Assembly: GCA_016872925.1 (NCBI GenBank)
Contig: VGYR01000001.1
Span: 1-42,782 of the forward strand
Direction: 5' to 3'
Length of the DNA stretch: 42,782 bases
Source: Planctomycetota bacterium
Lineage (GTDB): Bacteria > Planctomycetota > Planctomycetia > Pirellulales > UBA1268
Shown here: positions 2,853-28,233 of the stretch, in pieces
How positions within the stretch are numbered: the first letter of the stretch is position 1
Layout: each line of letters begins with the position of its first letter
Position numbers and translations under genes: made by a program
Notes under the pieces: model-generated
Databases searched by the model: none
What the model saw: the letters and a program-made list of their open reading frames with translations, nothing else
What the model was told of the DNA's origin: nothing

Positions 2853-2924
2853 AACCCGGCAATTGCTACATTGCTGCGGTTCCCGAACCTCGTGTTTGAT
2901 CCCCGTATCCCAAGGAGCGATCGC

Positions 2925-4130
2925 ATGACGCACGATCCCGTTGCCGGGCGGATCTCCCGCCGCGGCGTCCTCGGCGGTTCTCTGGCCGCGACGGCGGTGG
3001 CGGCTTTTCCCGCTGGCGTTTTTGCGGGCGGCGGCGACCGAATCCGCGTGGGCCTCGTCGGCTGCGGTGGCCGCGGCGTGGGAGCGGCCCTGCACGCGGC
3101 CCTGGCCGGGCCTGATGTCGAGGTGGCGGCCATCGGCGACCTGTTTGCCGACCAAGTGTCCCTGGCCGCGGACTCGATCGCGTCCGCCGGTCGCCGGCAT
3201 GGGGCGCCCTTGCTGACGTTCCTCGGTCCACAGGCCGCGGCGCAGGTGATCGCCGCCGACGTCGATCTCGTGATCCTCGCCACGCCGCCGCATCTCCGAC
3301 CGAGCCATGCGGCGCTGGCGATCCGCGCGGGGCGGCACGTGTTCTGCGAACCTCCCGTGGCAGTCGATGCGGCCGGCGCGCTGGCGATGCTCGCGGTCGC
3401 CGCCGAGGCCCGGGCCCGCGGCCTCACCGCGGCATGCGGCCTCCACTCGCGACACCACGCCCCGACGGCCGCCGCGATCGCGCGCATCCACGACGGCCGC
3501 ATCGGCCGTGTGACGCGGGGAGTCGCCGTGGCGGAGCTGGGCCTGCCCTGGCGACGGCCGCGGCTGGCCGGTTGGACCGACGCGGAACACGAGCAGCGAA
3601 ACTGGATCGACGTCCCGAGGCTTTCCGGGGGACCGCTGGTGGAGCATCACGTGCATGCCATCGACCGGGTGCTCTGGGCCTTTGGCGACCTGCCTCCAGA
3701 GTCGGTCACGCCGCTCTTCCACACGGAGTTGCTGCCGACCCCTGCCGAGCGGTCGCCGGCCGTCGCCGTCACTTACCGGTTTGCCGACGGCCGCACGCTC
3801 GTGGCGGGCATCGCACGGCGCGAGGGGATCGAGACGCGCGTGGAGGAAACCGTCTATGGAACTCGAGGGGACGCCGATCTCCGGGCCGCGCTGGTTTCGG
3901 CACCGGGCAGGGACGGCGGTTCGCCGTACGAGTCCTGCATGCGAGCGGTGATCGAGGGCATCCGCCGGGGCAGTCCGCTTGGCGACCTCGAATCCGGCTG
4001 CCGGAGCACCATGGCGGCGATTCTCGGCAGGGACGCGGCCACGGCCGGGGTGCCGCTGGGGTGGAACGACGTCAGGACTGCAGGTTCCGGGGGCCAGGCC
4101 ATACAGCCCCTACAATCGGCAAGGGTGTGA
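2925..4130 (+). CDS. Gfo/Idh/MocA-family oxidoreductase with Tat signal
   Basis: ATG 2925 preceded by AAGGAG. Twin-arginine motif SRRGVLGGS. Rossmann start IRVGLVGCGGRG. Family-typical EPP motif (VFCEPPVA). Confidence 0.85.
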   Translation: MTHDPVAGRISRRGVLGGSLAATAVAAFPAGVFAGGGDRIRVGLVGCGGRGVGAALHAALAGPDVEVAAIGDLFADQVSLAADSIASAGRRHGAPLLTFLGPQAAAQVIAADVDLVILATPPHLRPSHAALAIRAGRHVFCEPPVAVDAAGALAMLAVAAEARARGLTAACGLHSRHHAPTAAAIARIHDGRIGRVTRGVAVAELGLPWRRPRLAGWTDAEHEQRNWIDVPRLSGGPLVEHHVHAIDRVLWAFGDLPPESVTPLFHTELLPTPAERSPAVAVTYRFADGRTLVAGIARREGIETRVEETVYGTRGDADLRAALVSAPGRDGGSPYESCMRAVIEGIRRGSPLGDLESGCRSTMAAILGRDAATAGVPLGWNDVRTAGSGGQAIQPLQSARV

Positions 4131-5689: not shown

Positions 5690-7246
5690 ATGCCTCACCC
5701 GTCGCCGGCCGGCCATCGGCCCGGCATGCTGGCCGCCGGCATGCTCATGTGTGTCGCTCTGTTCGTTGCTCCCGCCGCTTGCAACGCAGAGCAAGGCACG
5801 CCCATCTTCGACGGCACGTCGCTGGCCGGCTGGGAAGGCAGGCCGGATTTCTGGAGAGTCGAAGACGGCGCCATCGTCGGCGAGACAACAGCCGAGAAGC
5901 CGACCAAGGGCAACACGTTTCTGATCTGGCGGCAGGGGCTCGTCGATGACTTCGAACTCACGCTGCAGTACCGGATCACGGGCACGCCGGCCGCCAACAG
6001 CGGCATCCAGTACCGGAGCCGCGACCTGGGCGACTCCGTCGTCGGCGGCTACCAGGCCGACTTCGAAGCCGGCCCGACCTACTCGGGCATCGTCTACGAG
6101 GAGCGGGGCCGCGGCATCCTCTGCCAGCGCGGCCAGCGGGCCACGATCGCCGCCGACGGCGGGAAGCACGCCGGCGAACCGATCGGTGACACCGCCGAAC
6201 TCCAGAAGACGATCCGGCCTGACGACTGGAACGACTACCGGATCGTGGCCCGCGGGCCGCTGCTCCAGCACTTCATCAACGGGCGGCTGATGTCCGAGGT
6301 GCTCGACGAGCAGGCCGACAAGCGGTCGCTGCAGGGCATCCTCGCCCTGCAACTCCATGCCGGGCCGCCGATGAAGGTGGAGTTCAAGGACATCCGGCTG
6401 AAGAGGCTGAAGCTGGCGGATGGTCGCAGGAAGCTCGTGCTGGTGGCGGGCAAGCCGAGCCACGGCCGGGGTGAGCACGAGCACCGGGCCGGCGTGATGC
6501 TCGCGGAGAAGTGTCTCGACGCGCACTTCGGCGGCGAGCCGCTGCCCCGGCTGGTGACCGAAACCTACACCGGCGGCTGGCCCGCAGACCCCACTGCCTT
6601 CGACAACGCCGACGCCATCTTCTTCTTCGCCGACGGCGGCGACGGCCACCCGGTGCTGCAGAGCAACCGGCTGGCGCAGGTCGACGCGCTGGCCAGGCGG
6701 GGCGTGGGCATCGCCTGCCTCCACTACGCCGTGGAGGTGCCGAAGGAAAACGGCGGTCCCGAGTTTCTCGAGTGGCTGGGCGGGTATTTCGAGCCGCACT
6801 GGTCGGTGAACCCGCACTGGACGCTCGCGGACACGCAGCTCGCCGAGGGCCATCCGATCGTCCGCGGCGTGAAGCCCTTCGTGACCAACGACGAGTGGTA
6901 CTACCACATGCGGTTCCGCGATCCGCCGGAGGGGCTGACGCTGATCCTCACGGCCGTGCCGCCCGACGACACCCGCCAGCGGCCGGACGGACCGCACAGC
7001 AACAATCCGACGGTCCGCAACGGGAAAGGTGGCCGCGAGGCGCTCGCGTGGGCCTACGAGCGACCCGCGGGTGGCCGCGGCTTCGGCTGCACGGGAGCCC
7101 ACTTCCACCGCAACTGGGCCAACGACGACTTTCGCACGATGATGCTCAACGCACTCGCCTGGACGGCCGGCCTCGACGTGCCGGAGGGGGGCATCACCTC
7201 GAGCGTGTCGGCCGAAGAGGTCGCGGCGAACCTGGATCCGAAATAG
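5690..7246 (+). CDS. DUF1080 (3-keto-disaccharide hydrolase-like) / ThuA-like fusion protein, secreted
   Basis: Signal peptide. The DUF1080 pattern [68 protein letters not shown]. Then a ThuA-like half ([18 protein letters not shown]...). Confidence 0.85.
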
Positions 7247-7290
7247 GTTTCGGAACCGATCGATTCACCCGCCCACGAAGGAGGCAGGCG

Positions 7291-7647
7291 TTGCCCACGA
7301 TCACGGTCGAAGGAACAGGGGCGTTCGAGGTACCTGCCGGCAAACGTCTGGTGAACGCGCTCGCCCACGAGTGCGGCACGGACCAGCTCCACGCCTGCGG
7401 TGGCGTGGCCCGCTGCACGACCTGCCGGGTCGAGTTCGTGGCCGGGGAGCCGGCGCGGATGACCCAGGCCGAGAAGGACGTGCTCGCGGCCAAGGGCGTG
7501 ACGACCCCGGGCGTGCGGCTCTCGTGCCAGATCGCGTGCGACGCCGACATGACGGTCCGGCTGATCAGCCGCTTCGAGGGCTCGGGCCGCAAGGACTGCG
7601 GCCACCGCTGCGGCGACGCGATCGAGCCGCCGCCGCAGTGGGGATAG
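7291..7647 (+). CDS. 2Fe-2S ferredoxin
   Basis: TTG start 6 nt after AAGGAGG (7278..7284), in frame with ORF 6511..7647. Cluster ligand pattern C-x5-C-x2-C ... C (HACGGVARCTTCRV ... LSCQI). Confidence 0.8.
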   Translation: MPTITVEGTGAFEVPAGKRLVNALAHECGTDQLHACGGVARCTTCRVEFVAGEPARMTQAEKDVLAAKGVTTPGVRLSCQIACDADMTVRLISRFEGSGRKDCGHRCGDAIEPPPQWG

Positions 7648-7649
7648 GG

Positions 7650-8004
7650 CGACTCGATCACCCGTGCCCCTGCCACATCCGGATGGCAGGTTCGCGGAAA
7701 GGTCGCCGGCCTTGCAGAGGAGCGCGGGTTTTCAACCCGCGGTGCAGTCGGCACAGGTTGGAAACCTGTGCTACTCCCCCGACCGGCCTCCCTGCACCTC
7801 TCCTACCGCGAGGCGTTGGCCGTCCGCGCTCACCGACCCGCACTCAGCGCGGGGTTGCCCGTGCCCCGCGAGCCGGCGTATGCCGCCAAGCGCAGCCAGG
7901 ATGGCGAAGCGCCGGCGGCATCCGAGTGAACGAAGGGCAGGATGCCCTGAGTGAACGTCCGGCGACGGGGCACGGGCAGCCCCGCGCCACCCGAACGGCC
8001 CGCG
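7650..8004. repeat. Intergenic mosaic repeat locus A
   Basis: Hairpin module H1 GCAGAGGAGCGCGGGTTTTCAACCCGCGG (7714..7742) also occurs at 26548..26577. Hairpin module H2 CACAGGTTGGAAACCTGTG (7752..7770) has a relative at 29671..29688. A partial long module L (7904..7990) aligns with 29711..29875 and with the reverse complement of 26571..26733. Inverted 18-bp arms at 7851..7868 and 7966..7983. Confidence 0.85.
7669..7690 (+). terminator. Candidate stem-loop terminator after the ferredoxin gene
   Basis: CCTGCCA-catccgga-TGGCAGG hairpin 22 nt after the stop codon, followed only by TT. There is no real U-tract, so this is weak. Confidence 0.25.
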
Positions 8005-9378
8005 TCACTTCGCGCCTGCCACGCCGAACAGCCGCTCGACGATCCCGGCGACGTCCGTCATCGCGAGCGACTCCGCGGCGGTGATGTCGGGCCGCGACGC
8101 GATCAGGATCGTCTCGTGCGGATTCGCGGGATCGACTGCGCCGTGGGAGCCCTTCACGAGCGCCGGGTCGAGCGGGATCGCGATCTGCGGCAGCCGCGTG
8201 CGGTCGAGGTGGAGCTCCAGCGGGTCGTAGCCGGGCTTGCGGTGGATGTCGATCGTCCGGGCGAAGGTCGGCGCACGCGCCTCGTCGAGCCAGGAGAAGT
8301 AGGTCTGCCAGGAGTCGAGCGTGCTCTCGATGAAGAGGTCGCCGCAGCGGTTCATGGAGCGTGGCTGGCCCGGGGCCACCAGTCCGGCCGTCACGAGTTC
8401 CTCCCCCCGGAGCACCCGGCCCACCCCTGCCCTGCCCCGGAAGAGATCGGCCACCGACACCGCATCGGCCGGATCGCGCAGGAACACGTGGCCGATCTGG
8501 TGGTCGGCGAGCGTCCACGCCCGGCTGCCCGTCAGGTCGAGGATCTCGCCGTCGGACGTCTCGCGCACCGCCAGCAAGCCAGCCTCCCGCAGGATGCGAT
8601 TGGGATGCACCGCATGCGACACCGGTCGGATCCTGTATTCGCCGGCCACGAGGACGACGAGGTCGTCGCGGCCCACGAGTGCGCCGAAATCGTCGAGCAG
8701 CGTGCCGATCTCGGCGTCGAGTTCGCCGCAGGCTGCGTGGGCCTGGGGACTGTCGGGACCGGTGCGTTGCGCGGCATAGTCGAGGTGCGGCAGATAGACG
8801 AAGGCCAGGTCCGGCGGCGCGGGACGCGACGCCTCGACGAAGCTCCGGGCGATCCACCGCGACGACTCGATGCCGGCGGCCGGCCCCCAGAACTTGTGGA
8901 GCGGAAACTCTCCGAGCGTCTCGCGCAGCCCGGCGTAGAGCGACTCCGGATTCGTGTGGCACCACATCGTCTCGGTGCCGTCGGCGTTGTGCCTGGGCGC
9001 GGGCAGGCAGACGAGGTCCGCGGTCGCATGCTTCGACTGGAGCAGGAACCAGGCCGCCGTGCGGGCCTGGGGGCGGGCCGCCTTGAGCCGGTCCCAGAGC
9101 CGCGGCGCGCGGTGGACCGAGTCCGGACTGATCCACATCTCGAGGTGCTCGGAGCCGCGGTCGAACAAGCCGTTGGCGACGACCCCATGCGCGGCAGGCC
9201 CGGTTCCGGTGGTGAGCGCGGCCTGCACCGGACAGGTGACCGCGGGGAAGCCCGGGGCGAGCGGCACCGCGCGGCCGGCGGCGGCGAGGCCGGCGAGCAC
9301 GGGCATCCGCGGCAGGTCCTCGGCCCGCAGGCCCGGAATCGAGAGCAGGAGCACGTGCGGACCGTGGGGCGTGGTCAT
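8005..9378 (-). CDS. Alkaline-phosphatase / nucleotide pyrophosphatase-phosphodiesterase family protein (EboF-like)
   Basis: Full ORF of 457 aa. N-terminal VLLLSIPGLR and TCPVQAALTTG match the metal/nucleophile region (T.P......TG) of type I phosphodiesterase/NPP enzymes. ATGA overlap with the upstream gene. Confidence 0.8.
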   Translation of the reverse strand: MTTPHGPHVLLLSIPGLRAEDLPRMPVLAGLAAAGRAVPLAPGFPAVTCPVQAALTTGTGPAAHGVVANGLFDRGSEHLEMWISPDSVHRAPRLWDRLKAARPQARTAAWFLLQSKHATADLVCLPAPRHNADGTETMWCHTNPESLYAGLRETLGEFPLHKFWGPAAGIESSRWIARSFVEASRPAPPDLAFVYLPHLDYAAQRTGPDSPQAHAACGELDAEIGTLLDDFGALVGRDDLVVLVAGEYRIRPVSHAVHPNRILREAGLLAVRETSDGEILDLTGSRAWTLADHQIGHVFLRDPADAVSVADLFRGRAGVGRVLRGEELVTAGLVAPGQPRSMNRCGDLFIESTLDSWQTYFSWLDEARAPTFARTIDIHRKPGYDPLELHLDRTRLPQIAIPLDPALVKGSHGAVDPANPHETILIASRPDITAAESLAMTDVAGIVERLFGVAGAK

Positions 9379-10223
9379 GCGGCGGACGCTCCGGCGAGGA
9401 GGGGGGCGAGAATCATGGCCGAGTCCCGGGCCGTCTCCAGCCAGCGGTGCGACTGCCGGGGCAGTTCGACGTGCAGGGGCCCGTCGTAGCCGGCGGCAGC
9501 GAGAGCGGCGACCGCCGCGGCGAGGTCGACCTCCCCGGAGCCCAGCGGCAGGTGCTCATGACGGCAGGCGCGCATGTCGTCGACGTGCACGTTGGCGATC
9601 AGCCCTCGCCACGGCACGAGGTGATCGGCGTAGGGCCGCTCGCCCATGCACTCCAGATGCCCGACGTCCACCGTCAGCCGCAGCCGTTCCGGCCGGCCCA
9701 GCCTGTCGACGATGGCCGCCGCCCGTGCGAGCGTGTCGATCACCATCCCGGGTTCGGGTTCGAGGGCGACCGTCACACCCCGGACGGTGGCATGGTCGAC
9801 GATCGTCGCCAGACCTTCGGCGACGCGATCGCAGCAGGTCTCGACGGGCGCACGGTCGCGGCCGATCCCCGACCAGAGCGACACGCACGGTGCCCCGAGG
9901 GCGGCTGCGACGTCGATCGCCCGACGGCTGAAGTCGATCCGTCGGGCCCGGGCCGAGGCATCGGCCGTGACGAGCGTGGGTTCGTGCTTCACGGCGGGAT
10001 CGAGGAGGTGGCGGGCTCCGGTTTCGACCACGCATCCGAGCCCCGCCGCCTCGAGGGCGCGCCGCCACCTGGCGACGCGGGCGGCTACGTCGGCCGCGAA
10101 GGGGTCGATCGTGTGGTGATCCAGCGTGATCGCCAGCGACGCATAGCCCAGGTCGCGGAGCTGCGGCACCGCGACGAGCGGGTCGACATCGGCGATCGAG
10201 TTGGTGCTGAAGCCGAGCCGCAT
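9375..10223 (-). CDS. Xylose-isomerase-like TIM-barrel protein (sugar phosphate isomerase/epimerase family, EboE-like)
   Basis: Full ORF of 282 aa. VALEPEPGMVIDT, VDVGHLEC, NVHVDDM and HLPLGSGEVD are typical of the AP-endonuclease-2/xylose isomerase-like TIM barrel. Confidence 0.8.
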   Translation of the reverse strand: MRLGFSTNSIADVDPLVAVPQLRDLGYASLAITLDHHTIDPFAADVAARVARWRRALEAAGLGCVVETGARHLLDPAVKHEPTLVTADASARARRIDFSRRAIDVAAALGAPCVSLWSGIGRDRAPVETCCDRVAEGLATIVDHATVRGVTVALEPEPGMVIDTLARAAAIVDRLGRPERLRLTVDVGHLECMGERPYADHLVPWRGLIANVHVDDMRACRHEHLPLGSGEVDLAAAVAALAAAGYDGPLHVELPRQSHRWLETARDSAMILAPLLAGASAA

Positions 10224-10229
10224 GACACA

Positions 10230-11150
10230 TCAGGTGGGGGACACGAGCCGGCGGCCGAGCAGGAACCAGGCGACGAGCGTGATCACGACGAGCGCCCAGC
10301 GCTCGCCGCAGGCCGCCAGCACGAGCACCGCGTCGAGCGTGATCAGCGACATGATCGCATTCCCCACCGCGGCCCGCACGCGGCCCGCGGCCGGATCGGC
10401 GACGGCCTGCGCCACCCGCACCAGGATCGACGCCGCCAGCAGGCCCCAGCAGGCGAGCCAGGTCGTCGCCGGCAGCGACGCCGTGCGAACGATCCCCTCC
10501 AGCAGCGTGGGGCCCCAGACGTACCCCGCAGTCACGGCGAGCCCGACGGCCATCGCGGCGCCGCCGGCGGCCACCGCCGCCCGCCGGCTGCGCGTCGCCT
10601 CGTCGCGGGCCACGAGCGTGATCCCTGCCACGTAGATCGCCATCCCGGCCGGGATCGCCCACTGCCAGGGAGCGGCCGGCCCGCCTGCCGCGGTCATGCC
10701 GAGGATCCAGTTGAGCGCCCGGCAGGCACCCATCACCACCGGCCCGGCCGGCGTGGCCTTTGCATGCCGGTCATAGAGCCAGATCGCGACGGTCATCGCG
10801 GCGCCGACGAGGGCCGGCCAGGGGCTCTGCGCCGCCAGCGCCGCCCCGCACGCCGCCGCCGCACCGATCGCCATCAGCACGCTGCCGGCCAGCGCGGCGA
10901 ACCGAGGGTCGATCGCACCACTCGGCAGAGGCCGCTCGGGCCGCTCTGCCCGATCGAGGGCCAGGTCGCAGACGTCGTTCAGCACCACCCCCGCGGCATA
11001 GAAGGCGATCGACGCCAGCACGGCGAGCCCGCAGCTCGCGGGCGGCCAGTCGATGGTCGTGAGCCGCGACACGACCAGAAACCCTGCGAGCGAGTCGGCC
11101 GCCGCCGTGGCCAGGTTCGGCAGCCGCACGAGCCGCAGCCACGCCAGCAT
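10230..11150 (-). CDS. UbiA-family aromatic/polyprenyl prenyltransferase (EboC-like)
   Basis: Polytopic membrane protein. First Asp-rich motif NDVCDLALD. Second region WLYDRHAK. ATG 11150 lies 1 nt after the upstream stop (a GTG at 11168 is the alternative start). Confidence 0.85.
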   Translation of the reverse strand: MLAWLRLVRLPNLATAAADSLAGFLVVSRLTTIDWPPASCGLAVLASIAFYAAGVVLNDVCDLALDRAERPERPLPSGAIDPRFAALAGSVLMAIGAAAACGAALAAQSPWPALVGAAMTVAIWLYDRHAKATPAGPVVMGACRALNWILGMTAAGGPAAPWQWAIPAGMAIYVAGITLVARDEATRSRRAAVAAGGAAMAVGLAVTAGYVWGPTLLEGIVRTASLPATTWLACWGLLAASILVRVAQAVADPAAGRVRAAVGNAIMSLITLDAVLVLAACGERWALVVITLVAWFLLGRRLVSPT

Positions 11151-11151
11151 G

Positions 11152-12018
11152 TCAGACGAGCTCCACACCGGCCGCCGCCGCCACGGCGAGCAGGTGGGCG
11201 CGGGCCGCGCAGGCCGCGTCGTCGGGGCGATCCCGATACGGGTAGAGCTCGACCGTCACCCAGAGGTCCGGCGTGTGGGCGGCGATGGCCCGGAGCGTGG
11301 CCGCGAAGTCGATCGCCCCCTCGCCGGGCACGAGGTGGTGATGCACGCGGGTGGCCGCGATGTCTTCGACGTGATAGTGCCGCGTGTGGGCCTTCATCCG
11401 GGGCACCCACTCGGCGGGATCCTCGCCCACACAGTAGGCGTGGCCAACGTCGAAGTTGAGGCCGAGCGCCGGATGGTTCACCCGCCCGGCGAACTCGAGG
11501 TACTGGCCGAAGGTCTCGATCAACAGGCCCGGCTCCGGCTCGATCAGGAGCCCGATCCCGCAGTCGGCGGCCACGTCGAGGGCGGGCATGATCTCGTCGT
11601 AGAAGATGCCGGCGGCCTGCTCACGGGTCTGCCCCGGCTGGATCTCGCCCCCCGGCTCGGTGGAGATGTGGCTGGCCCCGAGTTCGGCGGCGAGCCGCAA
11701 GGCCCGCTTCGTGTGCTCGCGGCGGATGGCCCGGTAGTGCGGGTCGGGGTCGGTCCACCCCGGATGCCAGTAGGGCTGCCGCGGATCGGCGATTGCATTC
11801 ATCATGAACGCGTTGATGTTCGACACGACGAGGCCGCTGGTCCGCAGCGCCCGCCGGATCGACTCCTTCTGCACCTCGAGCAGCCCGGCCGGCCAGGCAT
11901 GCGGCACGTCGGCGAGCAGTTCGATGCCGCCGTAGCCGAAGCCGGCGATCCGCTCGATCGCCTGCTCGACCGGCGCGTCGAGATACGCATTGGAACTGAA
12001 CGCGAGGCGAAGCGGCAT
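11152..12018 (-). CDS. Second xylose-isomerase-like TIM-barrel protein, paralogous to 9375..10223
   Basis: ATG 12018 (MPLRLAFSSNAY). LLIEPEPGLLIETF, FDVGHAYC, HYHVEDI and HLVPGEGAIDF mirror the motifs of the other TIM-barrel gene. Confidence 0.8.
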   Translation of the reverse strand: MPLRLAFSSNAYLDAPVEQAIERIAGFGYGGIELLADVPHAWPAGLLEVQKESIRRALRTSGLVVSNINAFMMNAIADPRQPYWHPGWTDPDPHYRAIRREHTKRALRLAAELGASHISTEPGGEIQPGQTREQAAGIFYDEIMPALDVAADCGIGLLIEPEPGLLIETFGQYLEFAGRVNHPALGLNFDVGHAYCVGEDPAEWVPRMKAHTRHYHVEDIAATRVHHHLVPGEGAIDFAATLRAIAAHTPDLWVTVELYPYRDRPDDAACAARAHLLAVAAAAGVELV

Positions 12019-12049
12019 GCACGGAGATCCCTTGAACTTCTGCTCCAAG

Positions 12050-12055
12050 ACTATA
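12050..12055 (-). promoter_or_regulatory. Possible -10 box (TATAGT) upstream of the TIM/UbiA/TIM/phosphatase genes
   Basis: TATAGT on the minus strand 32 nt upstream of ATG 12018, inside the only sizeable gap (196 nt) of the ten-gene array. I see no well-spaced -35 (a TTGCCG lies 22 nt upstream). Confidence 0.2.
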
Positions 12056-12214
12056 GCCGGCACCGGCCCACCGCGGACGGCAACAGCCCGGCGGAGGCAC
12101 GCGCAGGAGGCGGGGAGCTTTGGGCCCCGCAAGCCCCGCTCGGTTCCGTCGGGTCGGTGAACTCACAAAGCCCCCCGGCGACGAGCATGTCCTCCGCCGG
12201 GCTGCGGCGCACCC

Positions 12215-12436
12215 TCACGGCCAGAGAATCACCCGCGTCTCCACCCAACGGGGCCGCACCGGCAGCCGCTCGAGTTCGGTGTAGACCATGGCGGAGGGAT
12301 TCACCTCCCGCGATTCCATCTCGGCCACGTGTCGGGCCACCGCGGCGCAGCGGCCGATCCACGGCAGGCCGCCGCACCAGACGACGCCGAGCCCGGCCAC
12401 GACCGCGGCGAGGCGCAGCGGGCCGCCGGGACTCAC
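12215..12436 (-). CDS. Small (73 aa) single-TM protein of unknown function
   Basis: Not a separate ORF in the track; it is the tail of shadow ORF 12215..13726. The GTG start overlaps the TGA of the upstream transporter (GTGA). Codon third positions are almost all G/C. Sequence: (M)SPGGPLRLAAVVAGLGVVWCGGLPWIGRCAAVARHVAEMESREVNPSAMVYTELERLPVRPRWVETRVILWP. Confidence 0.55.
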   Translation of the reverse strand: MSPGGPLRLAAVVAGLGVVWCGGLPWIGRCAAVARHVAEMESREVNPSAMVYTELERLPVRPRWVETRVILWP

Positions 12437-13845
12437 GGCTCCACTCCCTTCCGGAAGAGCCAGCCGAAGGTGAGGCTCGCCATCGCCAGCGAGAGGGCCA
12501 GATTGAGGCACTGGCCGCCGACATAGAGCGCCAGCGGCCGGCCGCTGGCGAGAACCGGGGCGAGTTCGCGGAAGTTCGTCTCCAGCCCCATGCACACGAA
12601 GCCGGCGCAGAACAGCCAACCCCGCAGCCGCGACGTGAATCCGGTGGTCGAGCCGTCGATCCAGAGGGCGAACTCGGGCGACCGGCTGAACAGCCACGAA
12701 CAGACGAGCGAAGCCGCGAGAAACCCGAGGATGAACCGGGGGAACCGCCCCCACGCCTCGGCCAGGAGCGAGTCCCGCCGCGGGCCCGTCGCGCGGTCCA
12801 CCCAGCCGGCCCAGTAGACCGCGACCGCGAAGGCGATGATTCCGATCATCGAGTTCTGGATCATCTTCACGGTGGCGGCCACCTCGCCAGCCTCCTTGCC
12901 GAGCGACTCCCCGGCCGCAACGACGGCGCCGGTGGCGTCGATCGTGCCCCCGATCCAGGCGCCCCCCACGACCGGGTCGAGCCCCAGCCACTCGATGACC
13001 GGCGGCATCGCGACCATCATGATCACGGTGAAGAACAGCGACAGCCCGATGGCCAGCGACAGCTCCTCCTTCCGGGCCCGGCAGGCGGCTCCGGTGGCGA
13101 TGGCCGCCGACACGCCGCAGACCGACATGTCGGCCGACACCACCATGCAGAGCGCCTTCGATGGAATCCTGAGGAGATGCACCCCGACCCAGTAGGTGAC
13201 GACCAGCACCACGGGCGTGACCACCCACGAGGTCAGCAGCCCCGGCAGCCCGAGTTCGAGCAGCCGGCTGAAGAGCACCTCGGCCCCGAAGACCACGAGC
13301 CCGGTCTTGATGAGGTACTCGCCGGCCAGCGCCCGCCGCAGCCAGGCAGGCACGCCGACGACGTTGCCGATCAGGATGCCGAGCAGCAGCGCCCAGAGCG
13401 GATACTCGAGGTTGTAGAAGTGGATCACCTTCTGCGCCGCCAGCAGGTAGGCCGACGCCGCGAGTCCGGCGAGGCCCACGGCGCCCGGCAGGACGCCGAC
13501 CGCCGTCCGCCCACCGAGCGCCGCCCCGGCCACGGCCACCGCCACGACCCAGGCGCCGCCGAGGATGATCGGCACGGCGACGGACCGGCCCTGCTTGTCG
13601 TGCAGTGCCGCCAGCGGGTCGTCGGCCCAGGTCTGGGGCTTGTCGATCGTGCGGGAAAGCGGCGTGGGCCAGCCCTTGGGCCATGCCGCCCGACTCGCGG
13701 CGTTCTCCGGCGGCCGCGCGGACCACGTGACGGCCAGCGCCAGCGCGACGAGCGCCGCGCCGACGATCGTCGCCACCATGTCCTCGGGCAGCCCCGGCCT
13801 GGGTGTCGGCAGTCTTGCGTCCGGCATGGCGATCGTCCGTGGCAT
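12433..13845 (-). CDS. YeiH/UPF0324-family putative (sulfate-type) exporter
   Basis: 470-aa polytopic membrane protein. VVSADMSVCGVSAAIATG and GGTIDATGAVVAAG resemble the UPF0324 (YeiH) family. The start is uncertain (ATG 13845 or 13827). Confidence 0.7.
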   Translation of the reverse strand: MPRTIAMPDARLPTPRPGLPEDMVATIVGAALVALALAVTWSARPPENAASRAAWPKGWPTPLSRTIDKPQTWADDPLAALHDKQGRSVAVPIILGGAWVVAVAVAGAALGGRTAVGVLPGAVGLAGLAASAYLLAAQKVIHFYNLEYPLWALLLGILIGNVVGVPAWLRRALAGEYLIKTGLVVFGAEVLFSRLLELGLPGLLTSWVVTPVVLVVTYWVGVHLLRIPSKALCMVVSADMSVCGVSAAIATGAACRARKEELSLAIGLSLFFTVIMMVAMPPVIEWLGLDPVVGGAWIGGTIDATGAVVAAGESLGKEAGEVAATVKMIQNSMIGIIAFAVAVYWAGWVDRATGPRRDSLLAEAWGRFPRFILGFLAASLVCSWLFSRSPEFALWIDGSTTGFTSRLRGWLFCAGFVCMGLETNFRELAPVLASGRPLALYVGGQCLNLALSLAMASLTFGWLFRKGVEP

Positions 13846-13858
13846 CCTCCGCCGAGAA

Positions 13859-14677
13859 TCAACTCGAGGCCGAACGATACCGCGCCAGGGCCCGCTGAAA
13901 CACCAGCCTGGAGGCGATCAGCGACGCGATCGCGGCGATCACGGCCGCCGCCACCGCTCCCCACGCCTCGCCCGTGAGGGGTTGGGCGATCACGCGGGCC
14001 GGCACGTTGACCACCAGCAGGATCGGGATCACGAACGTGCAGACCGTCCGCAGCGGACCGCCCCAGGGACCGGCATAGATCTCCGCGGGATAGCGGGAGA
14101 AGTTGGTGAGATAGAACCAGAAGTCGTAGAGGCTCTGGTTGCGGCCCATCAGGATCGTGGCGGCGGCGAGCATGATCACGAGCCCGTAGAGGATCGCCAC
14201 GCCGCAGAGCAGCAGCAGCGGGTAGAGCAGCCAGGTGATCGCGGGCGGCGTGTGGTCCATCCGCCCGAGCGCCCAGGCGAGCAGCCCCACGCCCACGAGG
14301 CCGTTGGCCAGCGACGAGAAGTCGACCCGGTGCAGCGAGAGCAGAAACTGCGCGTCGAGCGGCTGCACGAGCACGGCGTCGAGCCCGCCGGTGCGCACCA
14401 TCTCCGTGAGCTCCTCGGCGCTCGGCATGAAGAAGGCCTGCACGATCGCGTTGATGATCAGCCCGGTGGCCACGAAGGCGAAGAACGGCGCCTTCGACCA
14501 GCCGCTCCCCTTGCCGATCTCGGGCGTGTAGGTGAACACCAGCAGGTAGAACGCCAGGTTCATCGACATCCAGCCGAGGCTCGTGACGCACTCGAGGATG
14601 AAGTTCGCCCGGAAGGTCATGTCGCGAACCAGGCATGCCCGCGCGAAGGTGCCGAAGATCGACAGGTAGCGGTTCAA
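13859..14677 (-). CDS. ABC-2-type transporter permease (second permease subunit)
   Basis: TTG start overlapping the upstream TGA (TTGA), with GGAG 8 nt upstream. LNRYLSIFGTFARACLVRDMTFRANFILE... is the typical N-terminus of the uncharacterised ABC-2 permease family. Multiple TM helices. Confidence 0.75.
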   Translation of the reverse strand: MNRYLSIFGTFARACLVRDMTFRANFILECVTSLGWMSMNLAFYLLVFTYTPEIGKGSGWSKAPFFAFVATGLIINAIVQAFFMPSAEELTEMVRTGGLDAVLVQPLDAQFLLSLHRVDFSSLANGLVGVGLLAWALGRMDHTPPAITWLLYPLLLLCGVAILYGLVIMLAAATILMGRNQSLYDFWFYLTNFSRYPAEIYAGPWGGPLRTVCTFVIPILLVVNVPARVIAQPLTGEAWGAVAAAVIAAIASLIASRLVFQRALARYRSASS

Positions 14678-15729
14678 GCGGGTCGCTCCGTCGGTCGGGA
14701 CTCTCGGTCGCCGGGCCGGATGTAGATTTTTCCCTGGCTCGTCGACGCCAGCAGCCCGGGCAGGCTCGTGGGGATGGCGGCGAGCGGGACGTGCGCGCGG
14801 GGCCGCGTCCGCAGGTCGGAGGCGAGCAGTCGCCGGGCAGTTCGCAGAAACCGCGAGATCCGCAGCAGTCCCAGCGGACTGCGATCCTTGAATTCCCCCG
14901 ACACCCAGTAGCCGGTGACGGTCTGCCCGCGAAAGATCAGGTCGCCCGGGTTGACCGTCGATTCCTTGCCGGACAAGACACCGTAGACCGCGATCGTGCT
15001 GCCCGGCGGCATGCACGCGGCGAGGGTGCCGGTCAGTTCGCCGGCCACCGCGTCGGCGGCCCACGTGGCCTCAAGGTCCCGGGCGAGCGCCGTGAGCGAT
15101 TCCGCGAAGTCGGCGCGGCTGGCGTCCAAGACGTACGTGCCGCCGGCCGCCTGCAGTTCGGCGACGAGGGCTTCGCGATGCACGATGTTGATCAGGGGGA
15201 AACCATGCCGGCGACTCAGGCGGATCAGCATCCGACCCAGCTGCGATGCCCCGGCGGTGTGGATCATCGCCCGGTGCCGCCCCCTGATCACGGGCCGGGC
15301 GAGGCCCAGGGCCGTCAGCGGATTGACGAAGGCCGACGCGGCCGACTCGTCGCTGACGGCGGCGGGGATCGGCATCGCCTCCATGGCCTTGAGGACGATG
15401 TATTCCGCCCAGAAGCCCTGGCCGGCCTGCACGGCTCCGGCCACGCGCGTGCCGACGAGCCGATCGGCGAGCCAGCCGCCCCCCGAGGCGACGACGATGC
15501 CGCAGCCTTCGAAGCCGGGCACCACCGGGAGCGCGGGGGGAGACGCGTAGGTCCCGAAGCAATACAGGACGTCCGATGGATTCACCGGCGAACAGATCAC
15601 CCTGACGAGGATCTCGCCGCGGCGGGGCACCGGGACAGGAAGCTCGACGACGCGGATTCCCGCCGGACCAGAAAACGTCTCCAGCAGCGCTGCCCGCATC
15701 GTCGTCGAGCCATCCGGCAGTTGCTTCAT
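14674..15729 (-). CDS. MDR-superfamily NAD(P)H-dependent oxidoreductase (quinone-oxidoreductase / enoyl-reductase-like)
   Basis: GEILVRVICSPVNPSD, PVVPGFEGCGIVV and dinucleotide motif HTAGASQLG. I see no obvious structural-zinc Cys cluster. Confidence 0.8.
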   Translation of the reverse strand: MKQLPDGSTTMRAALLETFSGPAGIRVVELPVPVPRRGEILVRVICSPVNPSDVLYCFGTYASPPALPVVPGFEGCGIVVASGGGWLADRLVGTRVAGAVQAGQGFWAEYIVLKAMEAMPIPAAVSDESAASAFVNPLTALGLARPVIRGRHRAMIHTAGASQLGRMLIRLSRRHGFPLINIVHREALVAELQAAGGTYVLDASRADFAESLTALARDLEATWAADAVAGELTGTLAACMPPGSTIAVYGVLSGKESTVNPGDLIFRGQTVTGYWVSGEFKDRSPLGLLRISRFLRTARRLLASDLRTRPRAHVPLAAIPTSLPGLLASTSQGKIYIRPGDRESRPTERPA

Positions 15730-15747: not shown

Positions 15748-16620
15748 TCAGCCGCCGAAGGCCGCGTAGCGGCGCGTGCCGCGGCGCCAGGCAATCCGGC
15801 AGGCGATCGCCATTGCCACCACCCACGCGGCCTCGATCGCCAGCGACCCCAGCAGTTCGGGTCCGCGGACCTTTCCCAGCCAGACGGCCGAAGGGAAGTA
15901 GGCGGTGTATTCGAAGGGCAGCCAGTGGACGACGTCGGCGAGGCTCACGCCGCCGCTGCCGACGGGCACCGTCCGCAGCAGGTCGATCGGAAACATGTGG
16001 CCCGAGAGCAGGTACTGCACGAGCATGTAGCCGAACACGATGCTCGACACCTCCATGAACCAGAAGCCGAGCATGCCGAGCGTGGCCTCCATGAAGAAGC
16101 CGAGCAGGAACGAGAGCACCAGCGAGAGCAGGAAGGCGGCGATCGTCGTGGCGTCGGGGACGGGCGGGAAGTAGCTGCGGCAGAGGAAGAACACCAGTCC
16201 GAAGGGGACCACCGCCACCGCGTAGTAGACGAGCTTGTGGGCCACGCGGGCCGCCAGCAGGAACGACACGTAGTCGACCGGCTGGATCAGGAATTTCTTG
16301 ACCGAGCCGTCGCGGACGCTGCGGGCGATCCCGCCGGCCAGCCCCGGCATGCTGGAGAAAGCCCGGGTCAGCATCGTGAGCAGGTAGTAGGCCACGATGT
16401 CGTTCCGCGAGTAGCCGGCGATGTCGCTGCGGCTGGTCGCGGAGAACACGGCCGTCCAGAGGAAGACCTGCGTGACGATCGGCAGGAACCGCATCAGCGT
16501 GCCCAGGGCGAAGTCGCCCCGGTAGACGAGCCGCTCCTCCAGGCAGATCTTCAGCATGGTCCACCAGGTCGAGAGGCCCCGGAGAGGATCCCGCAAGGCA
16601 GCGGTCGCCGCTCTGCTCAT
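15748..16620 (-). CDS. ABC-2-type transporter permease (first permease subunit)
   Basis: 290-aa polytopic protein. ATGA overlap with the ATPase gene. N-terminus ...MLKICLEERLVYRGDFALGTLMRF is typical of the family. Confidence 0.8.
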   Translation of the reverse strand: MSRAATAALRDPLRGLSTWWTMLKICLEERLVYRGDFALGTLMRFLPIVTQVFLWTAVFSATSRSDIAGYSRNDIVAYYLLTMLTRAFSSMPGLAGGIARSVRDGSVKKFLIQPVDYVSFLLAARVAHKLVYYAVAVVPFGLVFFLCRSYFPPVPDATTIAAFLLSLVLSFLLGFFMEATLGMLGFWFMEVSSIVFGYMLVQYLLSGHMFPIDLLRTVPVGSGGVSLADVVHWLPFEYTAYFPSAVWLGKVRGPELLGSLAIEAAWVVAMAIACRIAWRRGTRRYAAFGG

Positions 16621-17675
16621 CGGCCGGCCTCCGCCGCGGCGGCCTCGCGGGCGTCGGTGCGGAAGAGTTCCGCCACGATCTGCTCCAGGGGCACGTCCTC
16701 GACCGACACGTCGCGGACTCCCGTCGTGCCGAGGATCTCGGGCAGCACGTCGGCGATCCGGCCGCGGTCGATCCGCAGCACCACCTGCGGGCCGCGGAAC
16801 TCGCAGGGGAATCCGAACCGCTCGATGCGGCTCCGGTCGGGAGCCTCGTCGAGGTCGAGCGTGACGATCTTGTGCGTCGTGAACCGGTCGACGATCTCCG
16901 CCAGCGAACCGTCGTAGAGCACCTCGCCGCGGGTGATCACCACCACCCGCTCGCAGAGGGCCGCCACGTCCTTCATGTAGTGCGTGGTGAGGATCACGGT
17001 CATCCGCCGCCGCCGCTGCACGTCGCGGAGGAAGTCGTGGATCGTGTGCTGGGCGACCACGTCGAGGCCGATGGTGGGCTCGTCGAGAAACAGCACCTCG
17101 GGCTCGTGCAAGAGGGCGGCCACCAGTTCCAGCTTCATCCGCTCGCCGAGCGAGAGTTCACGGACCGGCTGGAGCACCAGCCGGCGGACTCCCAGCAGGT
17201 CGACCAGTTCGTCGCGGGTCTTCTCGAACCGGGCCGGCTCGATCCGGTAGATCTCCTGGTGCAGCCGGAAGCTCTCGGCGGCGGGCAGGTCCCACCAGAG
17301 CTGGTTCCGCTGCCCCATCACCAGGGCGAAGCGGCGACGAAACTCGTCGGCCCGCTCCCAGGGCACGTGCCCGAGGACCGTGGCCGTGCCGCGGGATGGC
17401 GTGATGATGCCGGAGAGGAGTTTGAGGAGCGTGGTCTTCCCGGCGCCGTTGGGCCCGAGCAGGGCGACGAACTCCCCCCGCCCGACCTCGAGATCGATGC
17501 CCTTCACCGCCTCGACCACCCGGCTGGTGCGATGGACGAGGGCCCGGATGCTCGCCGCGAGCCCCTCCGGCTTGTCGTAGACGCGGTACTCCTTGGCGAG
17601 GCCCGCCACATGGATCACCGGATGGATCACCGGCTCGGAGGCCCCGGCCATGCCGCCGAGATCGGTGTTGTGCAT
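16617..17675 (-). CDS. ABC transporter ATP-binding protein (ABC-2 exporter type, with C-terminal extra domain)
   Basis: Walker A GPNGAGKTT, signature LSLGERMK, Walker B LFLDEPT. Start ATG 17675 (alternative 17651). The longer listed ORF 16617..18260 runs antisense into ispF. Confidence 0.9.
   Translation of the reverse strand: MHNTDLGGMAGASEPVIHPVIHVAGLAKEYRVYDKPEGLAASIRALVHRTSRVVEAVKGIDLEVGRGEFVALLGPNGAGKTTLLKLLSGIITPSRGTATVLGHVPWERADEFRRRFALVMGQRNQLWWDLPAAESFRLHQEIYRIEPARFEKTRDELVDLLGVRRLVLQPVRELSLGERMKLELVAALLHEPEVLFLDEPTIGLDVVAQHTIHDFLRDVQRRRRMTVILTTHYMKDVAALCERVVVITRGEVLYDGSLAEIVDRFTTHKIVTLDLDEAPDRSRIERFGFPCEFRGPQVVLRIDRGRIADVLPEILGTTGVRDVSVEDVPLEQIVAELFRTDAREAAAAEAGR

Positions 17676-25055: not shown

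Positions 25056-28233
<3,178 letters not shown>

Follow-up and report, generated by a model that had tools for sequence, protein, structure and literature searches.

An ebo-type gene module in Pirellulales: a UbiA-superfamily prenyltransferase between two TIM barrels, probably part of a dispersed ebo pathway

The 42,782-nt stretch analysed here (hereafter the window: positions 1 to 42,782 of contig VGYR01000001.1, GenBank assembly GCA_016872925.1, from a freshwater planctomycete of the order Pirellulales) carries four closely packed minus-strand genes in the order TIM-A, UbiA, TIM-B and phosphodiesterase. They encode an EboC-like prenyltransferase of the UbiA superfamily (referred to below as UbiA), the two small TIM barrels that flank it and a phosphodiesterase of the EboF type, and we interpret them as a probable planctomycete sub-cluster of the ebo system. 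The four genes and the region upstream of them are as follows.

11152..12018, minus strand: TIM-A, xylose-isomerase-like TIM barrel, first gene (288 aa; PF01261, 127.1 bits)
10230..11150, minus strand: UbiA, EboC-like UbiA-superfamily membrane prenyltransferase (306 aa; PF01040, 60.6 bits)
9375..10223, minus strand: TIM-B, xylose-isomerase-like TIM barrel (282 aa; PF01261, 142.9 bits)
8005..9378, minus strand: phosphodiesterase, EboF-type member of the alkaline-phosphatase/NPP superfamily, last gene (457 aa; PF01663, 143.7 bits)
12019..12214: intergenic gap of 196 nt 5' of TIM-A, from the layout the likely promoter region of the four-gene unit

The coordinates confirm the four open reading frames (ORFs) and the spacing described in an earlier, sequence-only reading of this DNA: a single nucleotide (position 11151) separates the TIM-A stop codon from the UbiA ATG, 6 nt (10224-10229) lie between UbiA and TIM-B, and the genes for TIM-B and the phosphodiesterase overlap by 4 nt in an ATGA (9375-9378). 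The motifs quoted in that reading for UbiA and the TIM barrels are likewise present, and the Pfam scores of all four proteins are well over threshold. The starts chosen for UbiA (ATG at 11150) and TIM-A (ATG at 12018) give proteins shorter than the longest ORFs; they are acceptable because they match the lengths of the homologues (305-306 aa and 288 aa, respectively). Between TIM-A and the YeiH and small-ORF genes upstream of it (listed below), 12019..12214 is the sole sizeable minus-strand gap. A scan of 7200-12600 for sigma-70 promoters and terminators returned zero sites, a result that is uninformative at such a planctomycete GC content (about 71-72% in the window).

The ebo genes were defined as eboA-F, with eboA-type and eboG-type variants, by Yurchenko et al. 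(2016, PMC5133447), who reported no clustering of them in three planctomycetes. The view of the sequence-only reading that the product of the system is still unknown is outdated, as a May 2026 preprint (bioRxiv 10.64898/2026.05.21.724671) places the ebo genes at the basis of thallusin and saccharoquinoline biosynthesis, thereby tying thallusin, an algal growth signal and morphogen, to this gene set. According to the same preprint (10.64898/2026.05.21.724671), the core consists of eboB, eboC, eboE and eboF, each of which is required for thallusin in Stieleria maiorica; EboC enzymes taken from three phyla transfer a farnesyl group to a trihydroxyquinaldic acid ester; in Actinomycetota, Ino1-3 take the place of EboD, and Saccharomonospora carries ino1-3 plus ebo; and planctomycete ebo genes are scattered, with eboA absent.

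Among UbiA subfamilies, the window UbiA appears closest to EboC, which is the best match among 18,950 NCBIfam models (NF035940, 180.3 bits). On the same model, syntenic orthologues from Pirellulales score 188-219 bits, the Haloferax protein 159 bits and the Aureibacter control 342 bits. The SCO3242 model (NF045897) gives 137.1 bits, under its cut-off of 260 bits (348 bits for the Streptomyces control), models of the DGGGP-synthase type (34-60 bits) and ChlG (26 bits) stay far under their cut-offs, and no match at E ≤ 0.01 was obtained with the NCBIfam models for UbiA, MenA, CyoE or MqnP. Aligned over its full length with Aureibacter EboC, UbiA is 29% identical; with the UbiA proteins fetched from ebo and ebo-like clusters it has in common NDxxDxxxD (NDVCDLALD in the window), ERPERPLPSG and MGxCR, the last of which is found in 4/6 of these proteins. 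None of these EboC-type signatures is present in E. coli UbiA, MenA or CyoE. The second Asp-rich motif is degenerate, ARDEA versus DRDDD in E. coli UbiA, and is degenerate in the UbiA proteins of ebo clusters too. In neighbour-joining (NJ) trees, the only kind calculated here, with support given as direct bipartition counts over bootstraps, UbiA is separated from E. coli UbiA, MenA and CyoE (76% bootstrap) and falls in a clade of its own (83% support) inside a poorly resolved EboC-like radiation. The NCBIfam scores, the degenerate second Asp motif and the tree exclude its assignment as UbiA, MenA, CyoE or DGGGP synthase, and the models and tree likewise place it outside the chlorophyll synthases.

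The last gene encodes what is, by sequence, a full-length EboF homologue of a distinct PF01663 lineage. Full-length matches were obtained with Aureibacter EboF (32% identity, E 6e-87), the phosphodiesterase of a Streptomyces ebo cluster (39%) and that of Haloferax (41%), and the EboF proteins of three clusters score 260-270 bits (E about 1e-85 to 1e-89); the best solved NPP (2gsn) reaches 45 bits in a partial match. No EboF-named model was returned by NCBIfam, so the assignment is made without a curated cut-off. In the EboF-family proteins, including that of the window, four metal ligands of the Xanthomonas NPP are replaced (D54 by P or V, H214 by Q, D257-H258 by E-Y), and the Thr nucleophile, D210 and H363 are retained (window protein, L004, L005, L006 and L087-L089; L numbers denote the loci compared). 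The metal site and chemistry of the family may thus be atypical. A gene for a 2Fe-2S ferredoxin (7291-7641, plus strand; PF00111 in relatives) converges on the phosphodiesterase gene; its product is 91% identical to that of L001, and its position is retained in relatives even where the phosphodiesterase is missing (L003).

Both TIM barrels contain EPEPG, DVGH, HV(E/D)D and HL..G.G, from which the sequence-only reading had concluded that they are paralogues; it also called the TIM barrel duplicated. They are 29-31% identical (E 1e-16 to 1e-22). The paralogy holds, as an old one: at about 30% identity they do not derive from a local duplication, and the common motifs are family-wide metal-site motifs. 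A recent duplication is ruled out by this identity and by the closer relatives of each protein in other clusters, since the Streptomyces TIM barrel encoded directly 3' of an SCO3242 prenyltransferase shares 44% identity with TIM-B (E 1e-65), and both UbiA-flanking TIM barrels of Haloferax pHV3 share 40-41% with TIM-A. TIM-A and TIM-B represent two old, separate subfamilies.

Nor is either of them EboE; of the four Ebo assignments proposed earlier, those of UbiA (EboC as best model, though below its cut-off) and of the phosphodiesterase (EboF) stand. The EboE model (NF035939, cut-off 250 bits) gives 17.6 bits for TIM-B and 26.9 bits for TIM-A, BLASTP against two EboE proteins yields only partial matches (E 1e-4 to 1e-8), and EboE is set apart from all of the small TIM barrels with 100% bootstrap (NJ). 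EboE is also larger, at about 390-400 aa versus 282 aa for TIM-B and 288 aa for TIM-A.

TIM-B forms a joint clade with the Streptomyces and Gemmatirosa TIM barrels (92.5% support, NJ), and the Gemmatirosa TIM barrel that follows Ino1 is of the TIM-B type. These relationships suggest that TIM-B is the type of small TIM barrel that stands beside Ino1-type ebo clusters, and it may correspond to Ino2 or Ino3 of Saccharomonospora in the preprint. In the PDB, the sequences most similar to it are those of class I xylose isomerases (E 2e-18). TIM-A groups with the upstream TIM barrel of haloarchaea at only 57% support. For TIM-A, the best PDB sequence match is AsbF, a dehydroshikimate dehydratase (E 2e-8), and a Foldseek search of the PDB with its AlphaFold2 model (pLDDT 88) retrieved SCO6571, UlaE, YcjR, IolI, ketose 3-epimerases and a QuiC-like fusion with similar scores. 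As these generic keto-sugar and inosose enzymes score alike, an isomerase, an epimerase and a dehydratase are indistinguishable for TIM-A. Of the module's proteins, TIM-A is conserved best: the listed full-length close homologues are 79-93% identical to it, and those of distant Pirellulales 63-74%. Rates within the module are very uneven, with TIM-A still 63-74% identical where UbiA is down to 35-43%; the best database matches are 93% identical for TIM-A and 82% for UbiA.

To place the module in its relatives, the 80 best loci of a genome scan were compared, nearly all of them labelled as Planctomycetota metagenome-assembled genomes (MAGs), mostly Pirellulales/Planctomycetaceae and many from freshwater lakes; together with a metagenome scan seeded with planctomycete EboB, 160 related loci were fetched. 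Counts were taken from aligned coordinates, for close loci (UbiA 47-79% identical) and distant loci (UbiA 35-43%) separately. Conservation of the order in relatives is borne out for the central genes: the gene directly upstream of UbiA is TIM-A in 29/33 close loci (15/31 distant), and the one directly downstream is TIM-B in 40/41 close loci (6/32 distant). The phosphodiesterase is found downstream of UbiA in just 12/26 close loci (14/30 distant). An ABC-2 permease gene lies within 3.5 kb upstream of UbiA in all 22 of 22 close loci and in 6/27 distant ones. TIM-A, UbiA and TIM-B stay together where the flanking genes change (on a 451-kb contig and in further loci), and the recurrence of the gene order in dozens of relatives shows that it is not due to chance. 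In several MAG records titled 'Candidatus Kuenenia', the locus is fully syntenic with that of the Pirellulales/Planctomycetaceae MAGs and its proteins are 75-92% identical, and two records titled Chitinophaga or Chitinophagaceae carry it also; both sets of taxon labels look unreliable (doubtful records: L009, L015, L016, L021, L022, L026, L028, L042, L044, L056, L066 and L075).

In more distant relatives, the module is joined by a further ebo gene. EboB is encoded within 6 kb downstream of UbiA in 5/24 distant loci (0/17 close loci), with 41-46% identity to Aureibacter EboB in the distant loci; it stands beside the same module in L054, L059, L063, L064, L067, L080 and L083 of the genome scan and in the metagenome loci L095, L102, L111, L119 and L136, and in several metagenome loci it is divergent and adjoins phosphodiesterase–TIM-B–UbiA–TIM-A. 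In L063 and L067, heparinase II/III-like genes separate the phosphodiesterase from EboB; they were set aside as probably unrelated. EboB is often preceded by an EboG-like gene: in 12 metagenome loci (L106, L108, L110, L149, L151, L155, L160, L162, L164, L166, L167 and L171) a small ORF lies directly 5' of the planctomycete-type EboB, and its product is 33-46% identical over 63-87 aa to a hypothetical protein of Deinococcus whose gene lies where Yurchenko et al. (2016, PMC5133447) place eboG, with a DHQS-like gene on one side and TatD on the other. This resemblance suggests that the variant present in planctomycetes is of the eboG type and not of the eboA type.

Comparison with known clusters shows the same families next to other ebo genes in several phyla. 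The canonical eboABCDEF operon of Aureibacter tunicatorum pAT1 (L004) likewise combines an EboC-type UbiA with an EboF-type phosphoesterase that has the same unusual active-site substitutions, and the likeness extends to EboB beside the module in the more distant Pirellulales; the window differs in that EboA, EboB, EboD and EboE are missing from it and in that two small non-EboE TIM barrels flank UbiA. The inositol-type clusters of a Streptomyces sp. NBC_00826 plasmid (L005; Ino1–UbiA–TIM–EboA–TatD–EboE–phosphodiesterase) and of Gemmatirosa kalamazoonensis plasmid 2 (L089; EboE on the opposite strand, then EboB–EboF–UbiA–Ino1–TIM) share with the window an EboF-type phosphodiesterase and a small TIM barrel, which adjoins the prenyltransferase or Ino1. 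They differ in carrying Ino1, EboB and EboE (in Streptomyces also EboA), in having no close counterpart of TIM-A, and in their SCO3242-family prenyltransferase, whereas the window UbiA is under the SCO3242 cut-off.

The gene order itself recurs on three haloarchaeal plasmids, which have TIM–UbiA–TIM on one strand: Natronococcus sp. CG52 (TatD–TIM–UbiA–TIM–Ino1–phosphodiesterase), Haladaptatus pallidirubidus (phosphodiesterase … TatD–TIM–UbiA–TIM) and Haloferax volcanii pHV3 (phosphodiesterase and Ino1 on one strand, TatD–TIM–UbiA–TIM on the other). Besides the matches of TIM-A (40-41%) and the phosphodiesterase (41%) given above, Haloferax UbiA is 36% identical to that of the window and, as in the window, no EboE is annotated in the stretches fetched. 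The differences are TatD, present in all three, and Ino1, present in 2/3 of the plasmids (none is annotated in the Haladaptatus stretch, which has the same core and phosphodiesterase), neither of which is found in the window; the downstream haloarchaeal TIM barrel is, in the tree, not of the TIM-B type. No earlier characterisation of these haloarchaeal clusters appears to exist, although no literature search was aimed at them. Within the phylum, the ebo genes of Stieleria maiorica Mal15 (eboB Mal15_37820, eboC Mal15_01440, eboE Mal15_49730 and eboF Mal15_03990; eboA absent) are scattered, whereas the window unites C and F with two additional TIM barrels in one cluster. EboC peptides of S. maiorica deduced from primers show the N-terminal RLPN, the NDVxDxxxD-type motif and the C-terminal T of the window UbiA; the motif itself reads DVFDLEKDKAERKM in S. 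maiorica and DV.D...DR.ERPERP in the window UbiA family. S. maiorica eboE seems to encode a true EboE, judging from a C-terminus deduced from primers and from a GS(W)ISxS motif, both of which resemble EboE.

Taken together, gene content, family assignment, conservation and recurrence across phyla beside other ebo genes mark the locus as a lineage-specific version of the known ebo system, not a new kind of system. Our preferred interpretation, which we consider somewhat better than an even bet, is that TIM-A, the EboC-like UbiA, TIM-B and the EboF-like phosphodiesterase form a planctomycete sub-cluster of ebo that adds a prenyl group to an aromatic intermediate derived from a cyclitol, the other genes lying elsewhere in the genome. 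We infer the following scheme of substrates, step order, product and export. A cyclitol or inosose (or its phosphate) would be made by an Ino1-type or EboD-type enzyme encoded elsewhere in the genome; the two TIM barrels, as metal-dependent enzymes, would isomerise or dehydrate the inositol- or inosose-derived intermediate, from which the EboF-like enzyme would take off the phosphate; EboB and EboE, likewise encoded elsewhere, would help to convert it to a hydroxylated aromatic acceptor of the quinoline type; and the EboC-like enzyme would prenylate this acceptor at the membrane, farnesyl diphosphate being the probable donor. This would yield a drimane-quinoline meroterpenoid similar to thallusin or saccharoquinoline, which the adjacent ABC-2 exporter may secrete. 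A thallusin-like end product would hinge on the presence of EboB, EboE and a cyclitol-forming enzyme elsewhere in the genome.

The locus corrects the picture of ebo in planctomycetes, where both papers on these genes call them unclustered (PMC5133447; 10.64898/2026.05.21.724671): across a large, mostly freshwater set of Pirellulales MAGs, EboC sits in a conserved module with two non-EboE TIM barrels and often EboF, which EboB adjoins in more distant relatives. TIM-A and TIM-B are now candidate enzymes for the first, poorly understood stage of the pathway, in which a cyclitol is turned into the aromatic core, and the ABC-2 transporter is a candidate exporter; if the product is thallusin-like, freshwater planctomycetes join the potential producers of algal morphogens.

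Several results weigh against assigning the module to a dispersed ebo pathway. Reference Ebo proteins found no EboA, EboB, EboD, EboE or Ino1 by tblastn in the 42.8-kb window (the sequence-only reading had already noted the absence of EboA, EboB and EboD there), Pfam scans of the other large window ORFs gave no TatD/EboB, EboE, EboD or Ino1, and the window contains no EboG. Across the 160 related loci, EboE, EboD and Ino1 were all missing from the 10 kb around the module and around EboB; the best 80 of the genome scan comprise MAGs only, without a planctomycete isolate, and about half of the close relatives have no phosphodiesterase at the locus. UbiA stays below the EboC equivalog cut-off (180.3 versus 250 bits), and the deep branches of its NJ tree are unresolved. 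The primer-deduced S. maiorica EboC peptides occur in none of the homologue proteins compared, which include no close relative of that enzyme, so that orthology to the tested enzyme is no more than presumptive; a protein search with a 92-aa chimeric query built from them returned fragments of 72-160 aa only, none with the peptides. The close relatives are freshwater MAGs, and the link between thallusin and ebo comes from one preprint. On two of these points the comparisons bear further. That the locus is a reduced variant, as the sequence-only reading had proposed, does not follow from 42.8 kb, because planctomycete ebo genes are reported as scattered and EboB does stand beside the module in distant Pirellulales. 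The EboC cut-off is too strict to settle membership, because proteins of the complete Deinococcus and Mycetohabitans ebo clusters are also named merely 'UbiA family prenyltransferase' by NCBI; the curated model misses the EboC-type enzymes of planctomycetes, haloarchaea, Deinococcus and Mycetohabitans.

The absence of EboE from the surroundings could also be taken at face value, in that TIM–UbiA–TIM and the phosphoesterase might be a self-contained pathway that does not need EboE and turns a precursor derived from inositol into another prenylated product than thallusin. This could be a prenylated cyclitol (or its phosphate) or a small aromatic, and might act as a signalling lipid or one bound to the membrane. 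The three haloarchaeal plasmids, in which TIM–UbiA–TIM occurs with TatD, a phosphodiesterase and (in two) Ino1, are consistent with this, as is the lack of an annotated EboE in the stretches fetched or of any EboE on Haloferax pHV3 by BLAST. EboE was near the module in none of the planctomycete loci scanned (≤10 kb), TIM-A is the most conserved component, as expected of a key catalytic step, and UbiA forms its own clade below both the EboC and the SCO3242 cut-offs. Against such autonomy, proteins of the EboB, EboC-like and EboF-like types occur in thallusin-type clusters too, planctomycetes scatter their ebo genes and a true EboE is apparently encoded elsewhere in S. maiorica, and the haloarchaeal regions were viewed over about 12 kb each. 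We therefore consider a self-contained pathway unlikely, though a serious contender, and are a shade more doubtful of its specific form, in which TIM-A–UbiA–TIM-B(–phosphoesterase) is an arrangement common to Pirellulales and haloarchaea that leads autonomously and without EboE from an inositol-derived cyclitol to a prenylated product other than thallusin. Were it true, 'ebo-like' clusters would make a family of distinct cyclitol-derived meroterpenoids or lipids and not a single molecule.

Two simpler explanations dispense with a common pathway. The four genes might have no function in common and merely keep an inherited order in a slowly rearranging region, as synteny in these relatives also takes in cysS, ispF and the genes for ThuA, GFO and DUF1570, and the phosphodiesterase has been lost from about half of the close loci. 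The spacing of 1 nt, 6 nt and a 4-nt overlap speaks against this, as does the cohesion of TIM-A, UbiA and TIM-B when the flanks change; and because the same families are adjacent independently in Haloarchaea, Actinomycetota and Gemmatimonadota, a functional link is favoured over mere inheritance, which we regard as very improbable. Alternatively, UbiA might be a housekeeping prenyltransferase (for quinone, haem O, chlorophyll or ether lipid) placed by chance among genes of sugar metabolism. The automatic JGI annotation of its homologues as '4-hydroxybenzoate polyprenyltransferase' and its closest solved relative, a DGGGP synthase (41.6 bits), would fit. This reading is largely refuted, however, by 180 bits for EboC versus at most 60 for the DGGGP type and 26 for ChlG with no UbiA, MenA, CyoE or MqnP match, by the absence of the canonical second Asp-rich motif and the 76% split from the E. 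coli enzymes, and by linkage to EboF, EboB and ebo-type TIM barrels across phyla; we give it hardly any credence.

Upstream of the module, the minus strand carries the following genes, identified with Pfam and NCBIfam models except for the small ORF.

16617-17675, minus strand: DrrA-type ABC ATPase, possibly associated
15748-16620, minus strand: first PF06182 ABC-2 permease, possibly associated
14674-15729, minus strand: MDR-superfamily oxidoreductase (PIG3-like quinone oxidoreductase model, 90.8 bits, under cut-off)
13859 to about 14677, minus strand: second PF06182 ABC-2 permease, possibly associated
12433-13845, minus strand: YeiH-family membrane protein (PF03601, 161 bits; TIGR00698, 78 bits), possibly associated
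12215-12436, minus strand: conserved small ORF of 73 aa, whose GTG overlaps the YeiH stop codon (GTGA), possibly associated

The ABC-2 permease gene directly adjoins UbiA in some loci without TIM-A (L054, L057, L074, L132 and L141). Its association with the module may be a matter of inherited gene order and not of function, because the housekeeping genes cysS and ispF are syntenic too. The MDR oxidoreductase gene sits between the two permease genes, its stop codon abutting or overlapping the presumed start of the downstream one, and is an insertion unique to this genome: it occurs in 0/80 of the related genome loci, where the permease genes are adjacent. In many close loci, though not in all, YeiH separates the ABC-2 genes from TIM-A. 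The 73-aa ORF, which has a hydrophobic N-terminus and a conserved C-terminal MVYTELERLPVRPRWVETRVILWP, matches nothing in Pfam and is kept in L001 and L003 (where it is called as a gene). Synteny suggests that YeiH and the 73-aa ORF are possibly linked in function to the module. Two genes on the opposite strand were rejected as pathway members, both being less conserved: one for a GFO/IDH oxidoreductase (2871-4130; periplasmic, with a TAT signal), which has weak similarity to IolG (46 bits), and one for a ThuA-domain protein. Further away, the ThiC ORF (25056-27299, minus strand) has its ThiC domain at residues 302-724 of 747, which reflects either a long N-terminal extension or an over-extended ORF in high-GC sequence.

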